From a virus, in IMG/VR virus record IMGVR_UViG_3300025118_000006, positions 1-64,000 of that record: DNA of 64,000 bases. One strand, 5' to 3'. Below the pieces are notes generated by a model that had not been told where the DNA came from, made no database searches, and was given only the letters and a program-made list of their open reading frames with translations. Numbering within the stretch: position 1 is the first letter of the stretch; the number at the start of each line of letters is the position of its first letter. The position numbers were made by a program, and so were the translations under genes. Below, piece by piece: positions 3,095 to 43,861 of the stretch.

Positions 3095-3333
3095 AAATGA
3101 GTGTAGACGTTGTGATCGGTCAGATTTGGGCTGACCTAGATTCGCGAAACAAAGGCAGGTTGCTTCAGGTTGTTGGTGTGACGCCAACGCACGCCATCTG
3201 CGAAGTTATTGTCTCAGCGCAAGGCAAGGCGAACAGGCGGAACGGTGTATCGATAAGAATTGATCGAATGAGTCCCGGTTCCAGGGGCTATAAACTTTTA
3301 CGAGGAAGGGAAGATGACAATGAGCGAGAGTGA
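3091..3333 (+). CDS. small hypothetical protein
   Basis: GAGGTG SD; start could be 3097; IGQIWAD..R N-terminus. Confidence 0.55.
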   Translation: MKMSVDVVIGQIWADLDSRNKGRLLQVVGVTPTHAICEVIVSAQGKANRRNGVSIRIDRMSPGSRGYKLLRGREDDNERE

Positions 3334-3829
3334 GAGTGAGAATGAGAACCAGGGTGAGCAACGCGCTTACATAATGCCAGCGGCTAAAACGAATTGGCAC
3401 ACACCACAGGTGGTGATTGATTTAGTCGAAAAGTTCGACATGGTCGGCCTGGACCCCTGCTGGGAAGAGGGATGCCTCGTTAAACCGATGCGGCGGTTTA
3501 CGAAGCGCGACGACGGACTAATTCGAGATTGGCGAGGGTACGGTACTGTTTTTGTAAACCCACCCTACGACGACCTTCGTCGGTGGTGCGAAAAGATATC
3601 GATGGAAGGCGAGAGGGGTGTTGAGATTATTGCGCTTTTGCCTAGCAGGACAGACACCAAGGCTTTTCAAGAGCGTGTCTCGAAAGCTACATGTATGTGC
3701 TTTTGGAAAGGGCGTTTGAGATTTGTGGGAGCCAAGGCTTCTGCTCCATTTCCTAGCCTCCTCGCATATTGGGGTGACAGGTATGATCGATTCTACGAGA
3801 TTTTTGCGGACAAAGGAGTTATCGCATGA
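3314..3829 (+). CDS. phage N6-adenine DNA methyltransferase (Dam_phage-like)
   Basis: WHTP, LDPC, DGL..W, VFVNPPY, LLPSRTDT and GRLRF motifs. Confidence 0.88.
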   Translation: MTMSESESENENQGEQRAYIMPAAKTNWHTPQVVIDLVEKFDMVGLDPCWEEGCLVKPMRRFTKRDDGLIRDWRGYGTVFVNPPYDDLRRWCEKISMEGERGVEIIALLPSRTDTKAFQERVSKATCMCFWKGRLRFVGAKASAPFPSLLAYWGDRYDRFYEIFADKGVIA

Positions 3830-4365
3830 AGTTCGATATCGTGTACGCGGACCCGCCTTGGGACTACAAAGGCCAAAAGCAGCACACAGGTGCCGGGGGC
3901 GTGTCCTCTGGAGGCGCAATCGAGCACTACTCTACACTGACCCTCGGACAGCTTAAAAAGCTACCTGTAAGCGAAATCTGTGCGAATGACTGCCTTTTGT
4001 TCATGTGGGCTACCAGCCCGCATCTTGATCAGGCTATTGACCTGCTGAAGGCGTGGGGCTTCAAGTGGGCAACCGTTGGGTTTGTCTGGAACAAACTGCG
4101 AGTAAATCCAGGCTTCTACACGATGTCGCAGTGCGAGATTTGCTTGATTGGAAAGCGTGGGAAGATACCTCAACCAAGAGGTGCCAGGAATATCAGACAG
4201 TTAGTCGAATCTGCGAGGGCTGACCATAGCGCAAAACCGAAGGAGGTTCGCAGACGCATCGAGCAGATGTTCCCGACGCAAAATAAGGTTGAGCTATTCG
4301 CACGAGAGCCTTCGAGCGGGTGGAGCGTTTGGGGTGATGAGGTCGAGAGCGATATCAGCATATAA
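3826..4365 (+). CDS. MT-A70-family adenine methyltransferase
   Basis: IVYADPPW, LFMWAT, AWGF, HSAKP and ELFAR motifs. Confidence 0.92.
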   Translation: MKFDIVYADPPWDYKGQKQHTGAGGVSSGGAIEHYSTLTLGQLKKLPVSEICANDCLLFMWATSPHLDQAIDLLKAWGFKWATVGFVWNKLRVNPGFYTMSQCEICLIGKRGKIPQPRGARNIRQLVESARADHSAKPKEVRRRIEQMFPTQNKVELFAREPSSGWSVWGDEVESDISI

Positions 4366-4403
4366 AAAAAGCCCCCCGAACCGTGCGCCGTCTCGGGGGG
4401 CTT
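4364..4403 (-). terminator. intrinsic terminator (U-tract on the minus strand; possibly bidirectional)
   Basis: 11-bp stem AAGCCCCCCGA/TCGGGGGGCTT, with A7 at 4364-4370, between convergent genes. Confidence 0.85.
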
Positions 4404-4453
4404 ATACAGACAATACCGCTTCTGGGAAGGGAGAAACGGTGAGGTAAGCTGCC
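4364..4453 (-). ncRNA. candidate trans-acting antisense sRNA (sRNA-R) against the replication initiator leader
   Basis: Own promoter-like element and terminator; 5' GCUUACCUCA and loop CCCUUCCC are complementary to 12380-12389 and 12345-12352. Confidence 0.6.
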
Positions 4454-4458
4454 TCATT

Positions 4459-4487
4459 ACACTGCCAAAAAACCTACTTTTGGTCAA
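4459..4487 (-). promoter_or_regulatory. sigma70-like promoter for the candidate sRNA
   Basis: TTGACC-17-CAGTGT with extended TG, the same layout as TTGACA-17-CAGTTT at 8986. Confidence 0.5.
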
Positions 4488-4960
4488 CGATTCGAGTGCC
4501 GTCTCCACAACCTCCGATACTTTTTTGATGCGCGAACAACGCTCTTCGCCCAGCGAAAAGACTTAGTGTGCTCACCTTTGCATCGACCAGAGTTGTACGA
4601 GCAGATAGCCCACTCCAATCCGTGCTTCCTCTCAAACCGGCTTCTAAAGCGATTTAACGCACGAACGCCAGCCTCGACCAGATCGCAATCGCGAGTTGAT
4701 CGGCTTTCACACCAGATTCTCGGAATGACCTGAAGTGGCCCCACAGCACCACGGTGGCTGCGTACAACATCACCACGCCGGTTGAGGTATTGCATCCTGC
4801 TTTCGTGCCAGGATAGCGCGGTTACAAGGAAGGGGTCTTCGCCTTGGCGTTCAGCCTCGTTTACTAAAAGAATGCAAGTTGACTCGCGTTCTTGCCGGAC
4901 GTTTTCGTTCAACGCCGGAAGAAACTGCGTCAACATCGCGCAATAGAGCAGTGCGTTCAT
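4484..4960 (-). CDS. lytic transglycosylase (SLT/lysozyme-like fold) with hydrophobic N-terminus
   Basis: Catalytic HESR, GAVGPLQV and YNSG motifs; AAGGAG SD. Confidence 0.82.
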   Translation of the reverse strand: MNALLYCAMLTQFLPALNENVRQERESTCILLVNEAERQGEDPFLVTALSWHESRMQYLNRRGDVVRSHRGAVGPLQVIPRIWCESRSTRDCDLVEAGVRALNRFRSRFERKHGLEWAICSYNSGRCKGEHTKSFRWAKSVVRASKKYRRLWRRHSNR

Positions 4961-5067
4961 TTTGACTCCTTTTCGATTACATCAATCACTTTTGCGTTAG
5001 CGGGGTACCTTGCCACAAGCTCTGCGAGTTTTGCCAGCGTTAATGCCATTATTTTCTTTTTCATCAT
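4957..5067 (-). CDS. 36-aa peptide MMKKKIMALTLAKLAELVARYPANAKVIDVIEKESK (not in the ORF track)
   Basis: GGAG SD; ATGA overlap with the SLT start. Confidence 0.5.
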   Translation of the reverse strand: MMKKKIMALTLAKLAELVARYPANAKVIDVIEKESK

Positions 5068-6286: not shown

Positions 6287-6364
6287 CCAGTGCACCCGTT
6301 CGCAACCACTTGACAATACTAGGGAAACGTGGTAAGCTCCAGTTAAACCAATTGGAGTTTGTCT

Positions 6365-6667: not shown

Positions 6668-6736
6668 TTGACAACACCACCAGCCGTATGCTCTAAATCG
6701 TATGGTGACGTTAATAACTTATTTGGAGAACAGAAA
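6668..6736 (+). promoter_or_regulatory. early promoter plus conserved leader A (GTGACGTTA...TTGGAGA)
   Basis: TTGACA 6668, GTGACGTTAA 6705, TTGGAGA 6723, ATG 6737. Confidence 0.75.
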
Positions 6737-8985: not shown

Positions 8986-9048
8986 TTGACAACGCCACCT
9001 TCTTATGGCAGTTTTGTGAACGTGACGTTAATTGATTGGAGATTAAAG
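8986..9048 (+). promoter_or_regulatory. early promoter plus conserved leader B
   Basis: TTGACA 8986, GTGACGTTAA 9022, TTGGAGA 9036, ATG 9049. Confidence 0.75.
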
Positions 9049-10311: not shown

Positions 10312-10340
10312 TTGACGCCAGCGACCGGCTGGCTTATCTA
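10312..10340 (+). promoter_or_regulatory. sigma70-like promoter
   Basis: TTGACG-17-TATCTA immediately after the stop codon. Confidence 0.55.
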
Positions 10341-10345
10341 ACGTG

Positions 10346-10438
10346 TACTTCGCTGGGTCAACCGTTGCGGGGTACCGAAGGGGTCTGCGCGGGTTCTCCA
10401 ATCTAAGAACGTCACAACCGCGCAGGCCCTCTTTTTTT
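10346..10438 (+). ncRNA. candidate sRNA / attenuator RNA (sRNA-E) antisense to early-operon leaders
   Basis: 13-bp stem 10380-10392/10418-10430 plus T7; 10395-10415 is the reverse complement of leader B at 18 of 21 nt. Confidence 0.65.
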
Positions 10439-10455
10439 CAGGGAAGGACACACAC

Positions 10456-11844
10456 ATGGACCCAAAAGCGTTTCCAAATTCGCTACAGGCTGAGCAGGCG
10501 ATTTTAGGCACAGTATTATTAGACCCTCAAACATACATTCTCATTGGTGAGAAGATATCCCCAGACGATTTTTTCAAGACCGCACACGGTGTCATTTGGC
10601 AGGCCGTCAAGAAGGTAGTGAAGGACGGTCGGAATCCAGACGCTACCGAGGTTATCGACCGGCTAACCCTCGCACATGAACTCGATGTTGTCGGTGGTGC
10701 GACATACGTGATGGAACTACTTGACCATACGTGCGTGCCAGTCATCGCTGAACAATATGTAGACATAATCAAAGCGCATTCGCTTCGTAGACAATTAATC
10801 CTAAACGCACACAAAATTGCGAAGGCTGCTAGGACCGAAGAGGCCCCGGACTCCGTTGCGGCAACCGCGATCCAATCGCTCTTGACGACCGTCGAGGACC
10901 GGGATGAGCCCGAGGCCAGACCAGCCGCCGACATCGTTACCGAGCGCCTCGCTAAAACGAAGGAAGCATTGGAACGAGAAGAGAGCAGCATCGGAATTCC
11001 TAGCGGTTACGATAAGTTAGACGAACTCACTCTTGGATTTCACGGTGGAAACTACATTGTAGTGGCGGCTCGACCGGGAATGGGAAAAAGCGCGTTCGCC
11101 CTAAGCCTATCGCTTAACGCAACACGAAAAGATAGATCTGTCGCATTCGTGTCCCTTGAGATGTCCGAAGAGCAGATGGCAGACCGGCTCATGGCGATGG
11201 AGTCGGGTGTGTCTATGCAGAACATTAGGCGAGGGGATATCAGCGAATACGATGTTGGTAGACTTGAGAAGGGCGCTAGGAATATCCAGCCTCTCCCGCT
11301 GTACATCTCAGTCCAGACCAGAATCAATATCGATGGGCTTAGGATGTTCGCTCGTCGAATGAAAATGCGTAACCAATGTGACATGCTTATCATCGACTAC
11401 CTCCAGCTAGTAATGCCCAGGAAAGGCTTTGGCAATCGAGAACAGGCGGTAGCTGATATGAGCCGGACCATCAAGGCTATCGCTCTTGAGCTAGACATCC
11501 CCATCATCGCGCTGGCTCAACTTAATCGTCAGGTTGACGGGAGGGCTAGTAAGCGGCCTATACTCTCGGACCTGCGAGAGTCTGGCTCAATCGAGCAGGA
11601 TGCTGACGCCGTTATGTTCCTGTATCGAGATGAGGTCTACGACCCGAATACTCAGGACAAAGGGAAGGCTGAAGTTATTGTAGCAAAGCAGCGCAATGGC
11701 CCAACCGGAATCGTCACACTTGACTTCGATGCTGAACGTAACATTTTTAAGAACGAGAATCCTTACATTCCAAATCATTCCTATTCACACACTACTACTA
11801 CCCAGGCCCAAGTTTGGGCCAATCGCTATGGAGATGACAGATGA
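10456..11844 (+). CDS. dnaB: replicative DNA helicase DnaB
   Basis: AEQAILG N-domain, AARPGMGKS Walker A, SLEMS, IIDYLQL, LAQLNR, DLRESGSIEQDAD, KQRNGPTG. Confidence 0.97.
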   Translation: MDPKAFPNSLQAEQAILGTVLLDPQTYILIGEKISPDDFFKTAHGVIWQAVKKVVKDGRNPDATEVIDRLTLAHELDVVGGATYVMELLDHTCVPVIAEQYVDIIKAHSLRRQLILNAHKIAKAARTEEAPDSVAATAIQSLLTTVEDRDEPEARPAADIVTERLAKTKEALEREESSIGIPSGYDKLDELTLGFHGGNYIVVAARPGMGKSAFALSLSLNATRKDRSVAFVSLEMSEEQMADRLMAMESGVSMQNIRRGDISEYDVGRLEKGARNIQPLPLYISVQTRINIDGLRMFARRMKMRNQCDMLIIDYLQLVMPRKGFGNREQAVADMSRTIKAIALELDIPIIALAQLNRQVDGRASKRPILSDLRESGSIEQDADAVMFLYRDEVYDPNTQDKGKAEVIVAKQRNGPTGIVTLDFDAERNIFKNENPYIPNHSYSHTTTTQAQVWANRYGDDR

Positions 11845-12320
11845 CCCAGCCAATTGACCTTTCACCAAGACCCCAGCTTTCACCAGAAGAGGCCGCAGTC
11901 GTAAACGCAGCCCAACAGCTTGTTCCTATCTACCAAAAAATGGCCGAAGCGGGACTCGTTGACGGTGAAATAACACTGAACGCCATCGTGCTTACAGCTA
12001 CCCGAATCGGTATCGACACGATGATAAACCACGCTATTTCGCAGGGTTACATGGAAGACCCTCGCGTTGCCGCAGCCGCCGAAAGCGCAAGCAAAGAGGG
12101 CTACATGGGTGACCTTGAACGGCGCGATACCGAGGCCGCCAACCAGACCGAAGAGGAAGAGGCCATTGCCGAAGCCGATGCCGATGAGCTTATGGAAATG
12201 GACAGCGATGCCGTTGAGGAGGCCGCCAAAGACCTGTGCCCACCGACTGACCTTGCAGAGCTTCCAGAGCCCTCCGAGGCACTTTCACAACCGCTTGACA
12301 ACGTGGCAGAGCAAGCGTAG
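11841..12320 (+). CDS. acidic hypothetical protein
   Basis: ATGA coupling to dnaB; GGAG SD. Confidence 0.65.
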   Translation: MTQPIDLSPRPQLSPEEAAVVNAAQQLVPIYQKMAEAGLVDGEITLNAIVLTATRIGIDTMINHAISQGYMEDPRVAAAAESASKEGYMGDLERRDTEAANQTEEEEAIAEADADELMEMDSDAVEEAAKDLCPPTDLAELPEPSEALSQPLDNVAEQA

Positions 12321-12390
12321 AAACGAGTGATGGGCGGTATGCGTGGGAAGGGACGCGCCGCCCATCACTACAAGCTAAATGAGGTAAGCC
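12295..12390 (+). promoter_or_regulatory. promoter and structured 5' UTR of the initiator gene
   Basis: TTGACA-17-TAGAAA; hairpin 12326-12369 with loop GGGAAGGG; SD TGAGGT at 12380. Confidence 0.65.
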
Positions 12391-13476
12391 ATGACCAGCG
12401 AAAAGGTATGTGTTTTTCGGCCCTGGAGAGCGTTTCAGGGGGCACACATCCCGATGGTCATCCTAACTGCTAACGACCTAAGCCCAGGCGCAAAGTTGCT
12501 ATGGGCGTTACTAGCTAAATATGCCGGGGAGAACGGTGCAGCGTACCCCAAGCAGCGCAAACTAGCCGAAGACATGGCCGTGAACATCAAAACCCTACGC
12601 AAGAGGCTCGAAGAGCTAACCAGCAAGGGCTACATAGTTCAAAGTAGAGACAGGGGTGACCGACGGGCACACAAGCCGTTTAATTATCAGTTCATCTGGA
12701 GAGACGAGTTTGAACCCGGACTTTTAAGGCCGTTGTCGGCATTGCGCCGGGTTGAAGTGGAGGTCCATAGGGATGGTACTCCACTCGAAGTCCACAAGGG
12801 TGGCACTCCAGAAGAAAACCCCACGGGTGGACCTCCAATCGAGAGCCCCACGGGTGGTACTCCTATCGAGTACCATACGGGTGGTACTCCAGAGCAGAAT
12901 GAGTTGCCTGAAATCGAGGCCCTCGAAAACCATACGGGTGGACCTGCGGATGTCCATACGGGTGGTTCTCGAATTAATAGGAGTCAAGAGATTCAATTAA
13001 GAGAATTAGAACAAAACCCCCTAACCCCCTTGCAGGGGGAACCTTCGGCTGAAGATGATTGGCCGGGTTTTCCATTTGAAGAGATACGCGAAGCGTACAA
13101 CTCTGTAGCGAAGGTCGAGGGGTGGGTCGTGATGCGTAAGCGCGAGCGTCCACCCAGGGGTAAGCGTGAGCATAAAGTCATCCGAGAGTTGCGTGCCCAG
13201 TGGAAACGCCACAAATCCTCTGTATGCGAGGTTTTGGATGTTTCGGGTACAGAATGGTTCGAGAGGTACTTTCAGGCGTGTAGAGGCTATGTTACGTGGG
13301 ATTGGAGGCCACATCTTGAGTATTGGGCGAGGCTAGATACAGAGGAGGCTATTTTGGACCGCAAGAATAGTGTCTCCCAATTTCCTTCTTCTTCTGGTAG
13401 ACTGGGGGCAGCTTATCAATCGCTTATGAACGCTGCCGACCGAGTAACTGAGATGCAGGAGAGTGAAAATGGCTAA
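12391..13476 (+). CDS. phage replication initiator (N-terminal wHTH, internal iterons)
   Basis: LSPGAKLLWALL....AYPKQRKLAEDM..N.KTLRKRLEEL..KGYI; central repeats; NPLTPLQGE linker. Confidence 0.8.
   Translation: MTSEKVCVFRPWRAFQGAHIPMVILTANDLSPGAKLLWALLAKYAGENGAAYPKQRKLAEDMAVNIKTLRKRLEELTSKGYIVQSRDRGDRRAHKPFNYQFIWRDEFEPGLLRPLSALRRVEVEVHRDGTPLEVHKGGTPEENPTGGPPIESPTGGTPIEYHTGGTPEQNELPEIEALENHTGGPADVHTGGSRINRSQEIQLRELEQNPLTPLQGEPSAEDDWPGFPFEEIREAYNSVAKVEGWVVMRKRERPPRGKREHKVIRELRAQWKRHKSSVCEVLDVSGTEWFERYFQACRGYVTWDWRPHLEYWARLDTEEAILDRKNSVSQFPSSSGRLGAAYQSLMNAADRVTEMQESENG
12757..12968 (+). repeat. about seven iteron-like repeats (27-nt period, core CMYACGGGTGG), probable replication origin
   Basis: Repeats read directly from the sequence, followed by an AT-rich stretch at 12970-13017. 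Confidence 0.75.
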
Positions 13477-43600: not shown

Positions 43601-43861
43601 ATGGCGGTAATCTGGAAACATAAAACAATTCGCAACAGCACTGTTGTGGTTGGCTCTGAAACCTATCAGATTGATGGAGAAGGCGTTTTGTCGCCTGAAT
43701 TGTCGGAGCCAGCATCAACACGTTTGCTAGGTATTCCCGGCTATTCGTGTTCGCGAGTGCCCGATGCGAAGCCAAAAGAAAAACCTGCGCCGAAGAAAAA
43801 TCCAGCAGCCAAAAAGGCTGCCCCAAAGAAAAAAGCGGCTGCAAAGCCTAAGAAAAAATAA
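43601..43861 (+). CDS. small protein with Lys/Ala-rich tail
   Basis: GGAGG SD; KKAAPKKKAAAKPKKK. Confidence 0.7.
   Translation: MAVIWKHKTIRNSTVVVGSETYQIDGEGVLSPELSEPASTRLLGIPGYSCSRVPDAKPKEKPAPKKNPAAKKAAPKKKAAAKPKKK

Follow-up and report, generated by a model that had tools for sequence, protein, structure and literature searches.

A candidate two-seed antisense RNA with perfect complementarity to the replication initiator leader of an uncultured marine phage

To our knowledge, replication initiators that are under RNA control are nearly always regulated by cis-antisense transcripts, as plasmids illustrate; the immunity RNAs of the P1/P4 type in temperate phages are the exceptions. Phage immunity RNAs such as P1/P7 C4, P4 CI and N15 CB act in trans through two short seeds; these RNAs, which form one structural family, are excised from a longer precursor by RNase P or RNase E, act in lysogenic immunity, and govern replication or anti-repressor functions. 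Trans-acting small RNAs (sRNAs) are also derived from 3' untranslated regions (UTRs), as are CpxQ, SroC and DapZ; these host-encoded, Hfq-dependent RNAs act on host mRNAs, use the terminator of the upstream mRNA, and are released by processing or from a promoter in or at the end of the gene. The plasmid copy-control RNAs (R1 CopA/CopT, ColE1 RNAI and pMV158 RNAII) regulate initiators through kissing loops and/or a 5' tail that pairs at the initiator ribosome-binding site (RBS), but they are encoded opposite their targets and are fully complementary to them. In pMV158 RNAII, both binding and the inhibition of repB translation depend critically on the 5' tail (PMC4485353). Here we describe an element at positions 4364–4487, on the minus strand of a 64,000-nucleotide stretch of DNA (the window) that makes up the first 64 kb of the 78.5-kb IMG/VR record IMGVR_UViG_3300025118_000006, the completeness of which is estimated by CheckV at 54%. 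The source is an uncultured marine phage, and the record was found again in many marine metagenomes by a search of sequencing runs. The element, which follows a gene for an SLT-like lytic transglycosylase, carries two exposed seeds that match two sites in the leader of the phage's own replication initiator, and may give rise to a trans-acting antisense RNA that represses translation of that initiator.

A preliminary description of this DNA had divided the element into a tail, a hairpin with a CU-rich loop, a linker and a terminator, and the minus strand from 4452 to 4364 does fold in this way (z-score −4.6). It had also reported two 10-mers that recur ~8 kb away, before the AUG of the initiator gene at 12391, in a leader that contains a hairpin and an RBS. 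Both 10-mers are identical at the two loci (TGGGAAGGGA at 4423–4432 and 12344–12353; TGAGGTAAGC at 4440–4449 and 12380–12389), their order is the same, their flanks are unrelated, and the leader hairpin and RBS lie where they had been placed. The gap between the blocks is 7 nt at the element and 26 nt at the leader. The parts of the element and of its proposed target are as follows.

4441–4452, minus strand: single-stranded 5' tail GCAGCUUACCUC(A) of 12–13 nt (GCAGCUUACCUCA), with seed 2, GCUUACCUCA, running from 4449 to 4440
4415–4440, minus strand: hairpin 1, with a 9-bp stem that includes one G-U pair and an 8-nt loop CCCUUCCC (4431 to 4424), which is seed 1
4404–4414, minus strand: AU-rich single-stranded linker AUUGUCUGUAU
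4364–4403, minus strand: intrinsic terminator, an 11-bp GC-rich stem with U7
12326–12369, plus strand: initiator leader hairpin of 16–17 bp with a small bulge and the loop GGGAAGGG (12345–12352), target site 1
12380–12389, plus strand: UGAGGUAAGC, which contains the Shine-Dalgarno (SD) sequence GAGG and lies at −11 to −2 from the AUG, target site 2
12391–13476, plus strand: replication initiator of 361 aa, with an HTH_36 domain and matches to PHROG replication-initiation families

A structured spacer of ~80 nt separates the SLT stop from the terminator, whereas coding sequence makes up 93% of this genome. The terminator U-tract overlaps the stop codon of a convergent MT-A70 methyltransferase gene, and U7 is found on the minus strand only, the plus-strand tail being UUAUAC. 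Hairpin 1 is more stable on the minus strand than on the plus strand (−10.5 vs −7.6 kcal/mol), where its G-U pair becomes a C-A mismatch, and the leader hairpin is 2.9 kcal/mol better on the plus strand (−30.4 vs −27.5 kcal/mol). Since hairpin 1 favours the minus strand and the target hairpin the plus strand, the proposed transcribed strands fit.

Complementarity between the element and the initiator leader is perfect at both sites, the antisense polarity is right and the seeds are colinear, as had been proposed. Tail and loop were run as separate queries against the genome and against its start regions; a duplex scan with the whole sRNA was set aside because the GC-rich terminator stem dominated it. 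Across both strands of the genome, the best two-site partner is the initiator leader (−36.0 kcal/mol, with the runner-up at −33.0), and a ranking against phage start regions, one of the checks put forward in the preliminary description, placed the initiator first of 80 (−36.0 vs −29.5 kcal/mol). Composition-preserving shuffles of the seeds never attained −36.0 (0 of 248; null mean −26.6, standard deviation 2.3, best −35.1). Taken singly, the loop duplex has an energy of −14.5 and that of the tail with the RBS block −15.2, and this RBS block is the best tail partner among the 80 start regions (−16.5 vs −13.5). Opening either loop costs 0 kcal/mol, and opening the tail and the RBS costs 2.6–5.7 kcal/mol (2.6–4.9 for the tail). 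A nested cofold retains both hairpins and forms the tail–RBS helix, with a net gain of −12.4 kcal/mol. Among single sites, the SD (GAGGAAGGGAAG) of the Dam-like methyltransferase gene at 3314 pairs best with the sRNA loop.

The position of the shared blocks adds to the evidence. Block 1 is exactly the 8-nt apical loop with its closing U-A pair at both loci, the stems being unrelated, and block 2 covers the initiator SD. A crude gene model leaves 33 intergenic regions, and among them this is the single colinear 10+10 pair, whereas 0.01 is expected from first-order Markov simulation and 0.028 from shuffles that keep local composition (p ~0.01–0.03). For an intergenic 10-mer taken at random from this genome, the probability of spanning an entire hairpin loop is 0.058 per locus, and that of coinciding precisely with an 8-nt loop and its closing pair is 0.001; coincidence with two apical loops and one SD contributes a further factor of ~0.003 or less. 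Pure coincidence is unlikely, at roughly 1e-3 or less before unmodelled biases. The observation stands, and with position considered the match exceeds what chance would give. An 8-mer pair shared with 6287–6358, a promoter-like TAAGCT region, was also considered and looks like chance.

We regard repression of initiator translation by a trans-acting antisense RNA, whether primary or derived from a 3' UTR, as having about an even chance of being correct, and it is the most likely reading of these sequences, ahead of a plain 3' UTR. The RNA would be the terminator-proximal end of a leftward transcript, from ~4452 (or from the SLT stop, 4483) to 4364, where the terminator would define its 3' end. 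It could be a primary RNA of ~89 nt from the weak promoter TTGACC-17-CAGTGT, or the 3' UTR of an mRNA that carries a 36-aa open reading frame (ORF) and the SLT gene (orf36-SLT), possibly trimmed; by either route it would present two exposed pyrimidine-rich seeds. Once transcribed and paired in vivo, its loop CCCUUCCC would kiss the loop GGGAAGGG of the leader hairpin, allowing fast loop–loop recognition, and its 5' stretch GCUUACCUCA would pair with UGAGGUAAGC and mask the initiator SD at −11 to −2. Masking of the SD would block 30S binding, leaving less of the lambda-O-like initiator, whose iterons lie in its own gene, and replication might be affected in turn.

Several observations weigh against such a repressor, and they concern its geometry, its specificity, its promoter and the background of short matches. 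The preliminary description held that loop–loop and tail–RBS pairing could take place together; the polarity permits both, but a geometric estimate indicates steric strain. A coaxial stack of the 9-bp sRNA stem, the 8-bp kiss and the ~17-bp target stem would come to ~34 bp and ~95 Å, and because that span faces a target linker of 10 nt, occupation of both sites at once would need a sharp bend or partial melting. A stepwise route, in which the kiss is followed by the tail–RBS helix, would be equally plausible. When pairing is nested and the kiss is left out, the initiator (−12.4 kcal/mol) is tied with the start region of the Dam-like methyltransferase gene (−12.6), so that specificity for the initiator rests on the loop–loop contact, and the CU-rich seeds pair with many purine-rich SDs. 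There is also an alternative hairpin at 4438–4458, whose stem has 7 bp in the plus-strand form and 5 bp (UGAGG/CCUCA) in the minus-strand form. The minus-strand helix partly masks the tail seed, a difficulty for the long 3' UTR form in particular, since masking arises only in transcripts that start upstream of 4456. This hairpin could set the 3' UTR form apart from a short RNA, whether primary or processed, and the short RNA would be the more active of the two.

The case for an independent sRNA gene is the weakest link. The promoter claimed for it comprises the following boxes.

4482–4487, minus strand: candidate −35 box TTGACC, overlapping the SLT stop TGA (4486–4484)
4459–4464, minus strand: candidate −10 box CAGTGT, with a 17-nt spacer; an alternative, TGTAAT (4461–4456), lies at 20-nt spacing

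The sequence TTGACC-17-CAGTGT is indeed present over the SLT stop. Its −35 box is good and its spacing ideal; in the −10 box, however, only 2 of 6 positions agree with the consensus, and a consensus scan did not call the promoter. Moreover, GTTGAC occurs 35 times in the genome, mostly within genes, so the candidate −35 box alone says little. The likely early promoters of the phage, at 6668, 8986, 18190 (minus strand) and 18970 (minus strand) in the window and at 72888 in the genome, have a constant −35 box, TTGAC(A/C/T), and −10 boxes that vary widely (TCTAAA, CAGTTT, TATAAT, TATAAC and CATAAA), each 7 nt before a GTGACG box. The promoter at 8986 reads TTGACA-17-CAGTTT, at the family's fixed distance of 7 nt from the conserved GTGACG box; as it uses CAGTTT, CAGTGT is not implausible as a −10 box. 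The element can be read equally well as the 3' UTR of the orf36-SLT operon, and because the segment is the 3' end of that unit, its RNA is very likely co-transcribed, being made whenever the SLT gene is. None of the sequencing runs in which the phage was found is recorded as RNA.

It is possible, if somewhat doubtful, that the element is a plain 3' UTR and terminator. Hairpin 1 and the strong terminator would then serve only to end and stabilise the orf36-SLT mRNA and to keep it apart from the convergent methyltransferase operon, and the complementarity would be coincidental, between two SD-like intergenic sequences rich in purines or pyrimidines. It does lie directly behind the SLT stop on the same strand, its promoter is weak, each block resembles an SD, and the loop can pair with the SDs of dnaB and the Dam-like gene as well. 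The bare repeat is unremarkable, since the whole window holds 12 colinear 10+10 pairs against 3.5 in Markov simulations. Two-block intergenic matches were likewise found in 4 of 44 unrelated phage loci, and the simulations therefore understate the real background, which probably comes from repeated regulatory motifs. Against coincidence stands the intergenic-only expectation given above, and chance also leaves unexplained why block 1 is the exact apical loop and closing pair at both loci (~0.06 per locus on a lenient count), why block 2 is the initiator SD, and why no shuffle attained the observed two-site energy.

A rather improbable alternative retains the RNA and changes its targets: a general anti-SD sRNA, whose CU-rich loop and ACCUC tail would act on several phage starts (those of dnaB, the Dam-like gene and the gene at 43601) or on mRNAs of the host, so that the initiator would be one target of many or not the principal one. 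Its loop pairs with the SDs of the genes at 3314 (−15.1), 43601 (−14.8) and 10456 (−14.2 kcal/mol). The last of these is dnaB, whose SD GGGAAGG (10441–10447) had already been pointed out and holds up as a possible secondary loop site of 7 bp, third of the 80 start regions. The nested cofold places the gene at 3314 level with the initiator, and known CU-rich sRNAs target many RBSs (PMC5688073). Yet two perfect sites in the right order are found at the initiator only, and the loop site in its leader falls in a hairpin loop, 46 nt ahead of the AUG, and not in an SD, which suggests a dedicated recognition site. We consider it very improbable that the two loci share a motif in the same sense, in which the plus-strand hairpin loop GGGAAGGG followed by UGAGGUAAGC would be bound by a common protein, as a translational operator, a decoy or a single-stranded DNA signal near the origin, with no RNA–RNA pairing. 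The two loci do carry identical blocks, on one DNA strand and with their order preserved, and the leader locus lies ~400 nt from the iterons; however, the plus strand at the element is downstream of the terminator hairpin of the methyltransferase operon and no plus-strand gene follows, the plus-strand form of hairpin 1 is weakened by its C-A mismatch, the blocks are spaced differently at the two loci (7 nt vs 26 nt), and U7 marks the minus strand as the transcribed one.

An Rfam search, which the preliminary description had listed among its checks, found no family at gathering score anywhere in the window. The P1 C4 / P4 CI / N15 CB family is absent among the 19 matches listed at E≤10 for 4300–4560. 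The element resembles C4 and CI in mechanism only: it too would be a phage-encoded small RNA, with two short exposed seeds that fit two separated leader sites, one of them an RBS. It differs in that one of its contacts would be a loop–loop kiss to a 5'-terminal mRNA hairpin, and the parts of the contig examined showed neither a repressor nor an integrase. With the plasmid copy-control RNAs it would share the kissing loop and the tail on the initiator RBS, but it lies 7.9 kb from its target with unrelated flanks, and its kiss cannot extend into a long duplex, because only 8–10 nt plus 10 nt are shared; a match to the Rfam ctRNA model (17.9 bits vs a cut-off of 50) covers the terminator stem only. 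P1 C4, P4 CI and the plasmid copy-control RNAs are its closest counterparts in mechanism, and the element would be a further variant of their kind. Like CpxQ, SroC and DapZ, it would end at a terminator that also serves the upstream mRNA, and its candidate −35 box overlaps the SLT stop; those RNAs differ in being encoded by hosts.

The best sub-threshold match is to Rfam RF02837, anti-hemB (26.3 bits vs a cut-off of 49.5; E 0.009 over 10 kb), in an alignment that spans the full model through the CU-rich 5' hairpin and the terminator but deletes the middle hairpin, so that the three-hairpin architecture is lacking. Anti-hemB is a proposed noncoding RNA (PMC1950547) that Burkholderia expresses as ncS04, and masking of RBSs by CU-rich loops is predicted there (PMC5688073). 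A second model, the Betaproteobacteria toxic sRNA RF02278, scores 15.3 bits against a cut-off of 50, and the element has one CU-rich hairpin, not two. In common with both, the element has a CU-rich hairpin loop ahead of an intrinsic terminator, and its first hairpin is close to the anti-hemB consensus; the succession of CU-rich hairpin, AU linker and U-tailed terminator is found in known anti-RBS sRNAs; those RNAs are chromosomal, in Burkholderia and other beta-proteobacteria, whereas this one is on a marine phage contig. The resemblance to anti-hemB is a likeness of design, not membership.

The identification of the target gene as a replication initiator, made in the preliminary description, is borne out by an HTH_36 domain (8e-14), by the PHROG replication-initiation families and by an internal iteron array. 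Like lambda O, the protein has an N-terminal winged-helix DNA-binding domain, with origin iterons inside its gene. Two further features belong to this locus.

12758–12974, plus strand: about eight 27-nt iterons (consensus near TCGAGTACCATACGGGTGGTACTCCAGA) inside the initiator gene
12295–12323, plus strand: candidate initiator promoter TTGACA-17-TAGAAA, which shares TTGACAACG with the early promoters; a consensus scan did not call it

The array encodes peptide repeats of the HTGGTP type, part of it is missing from a relative with 65% identity (P0014), and it is probably the origin, arranged as in lambda O. The candidate promoter overlaps the stop codon of a 159-aa ORF. It would give the initiator a transcript of its own that starts at about 12330, within the 5' arm of the leader hairpin; the hairpin would therefore stand at the extreme 5' end of the mRNA and keep 13 bp of its stem. 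Neither arm of this stem is repeated elsewhere in the sequence, and hence there is no operator family.

An early block of DNA-metabolism genes surrounds the element, with the following arrangement.

Left part of the block, plus strand: genes for an SMC/SbcC-like protein and RecU
3314–3829, plus strand: Dam-like methyltransferase (PF05869)
3826–4365, plus strand: MT-A70 methyltransferase (PF05063), convergent with the SLT unit
4484–4960, minus strand: SLT-like lytic transglycosylase of 158 aa, with the RNA element in its 3' UTR
4957–5067, minus strand: 36-aa ORF (MMKKKIMALTLAKLAELVARYPANAKVIDVIEKESK) with a TGGAGA RBS, joined to the SLT gene by an ATGA overlap
Further right, plus strand: small early genes, then dnaB (10456–11844), the 159-aa ORF and the initiator (12391–13476)

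The two methyltransferase genes are adjacent (3314–4365) and end at a terminator shared with the SLT unit. That unit begins with the 36-aa ORF, near a candidate promoter TTGACG-16-TAGCGT at about 5120. The SLT ORF itself matches the Pfam SLT family below threshold, but its homologues have PF01464 and the E-S motif is invariant. A plus-strand ORF that would start at CTG 4449 or ATT 4456 was rejected, its starts being non-canonical and its course antisense to the conserved SLT gene. In the dnaB leader (10312–10455), a TTGACG-17-TATCTA promoter is followed by a GC stem of 12–13 bp with T7 (10381–10439), directly before the SD GGGAAGG; the stem and T7 look like a terminator or attenuator ahead of the replication operon. 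No tRNA genes were found in 1–64000.

Protein relatives were found in ENA and Logan assemblies, namely one SLT protein (P0002, 78% identity) and three initiators (P0012, P0013 and P0014, with 91%, 70% and 65% identity); P0012 is encoded on a contig of 1.3 kb and P0013 on a Logan contig of 33 kb. No relatives were found among INPHARED phages by DNA and protein search, in IMG/VR by the exact hairpin, the SLT protein, the initiator or an initiator alignment, in JGI metagenomes by SLT and initiator alignments, or in GTDB genomes by the initiator alignment, and a DnaB search of IMG/VR gave no close relative (best 40% identity). An SLT alignment retrieved 55 distant loci from IMG/VR at 41% identity or less, in which the downstream regions are not syntenic and hold no comparable element. 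Scanning IMG/VR for the two-seed pattern gave one match, inside a coding region (L065), where ~3 are expected by chance. Four DNA runs contain the same phage at low depth and without a variant at either locus; as the phage is clonal at both, these runs are uninformative on constraint.

If the element is only a 3' UTR, the case shows how exact short matches among SD-like intergenic sequences can mislead. If the antisense reading is true, an sRNA encoded in trans and acting on the initiator of an uncultured marine phage through both a kissing loop and RBS pairing would widen the known range of initiator control by RNA, and its compact two-seed design is open to direct testing by compensatory mutations. 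It would also mean that a regulator can be housed at the 3' end of a phage gene, and that phages can assemble circuits resembling copy control from short bipartite seeds. We suggest, tentatively, that a marine phage with no visible repressor may control its own lambda-O-like initiator through a trans-encoded RNA and without a dedicated protein, by a kiss and by masking of the SD; with a loop that also reaches the SDs of dnaB and the Dam-like gene, and together with the terminator-bearing dnaB leader, this RNA might form a circuit that times or limits replication, a plasmid-style copy control exerted in trans.

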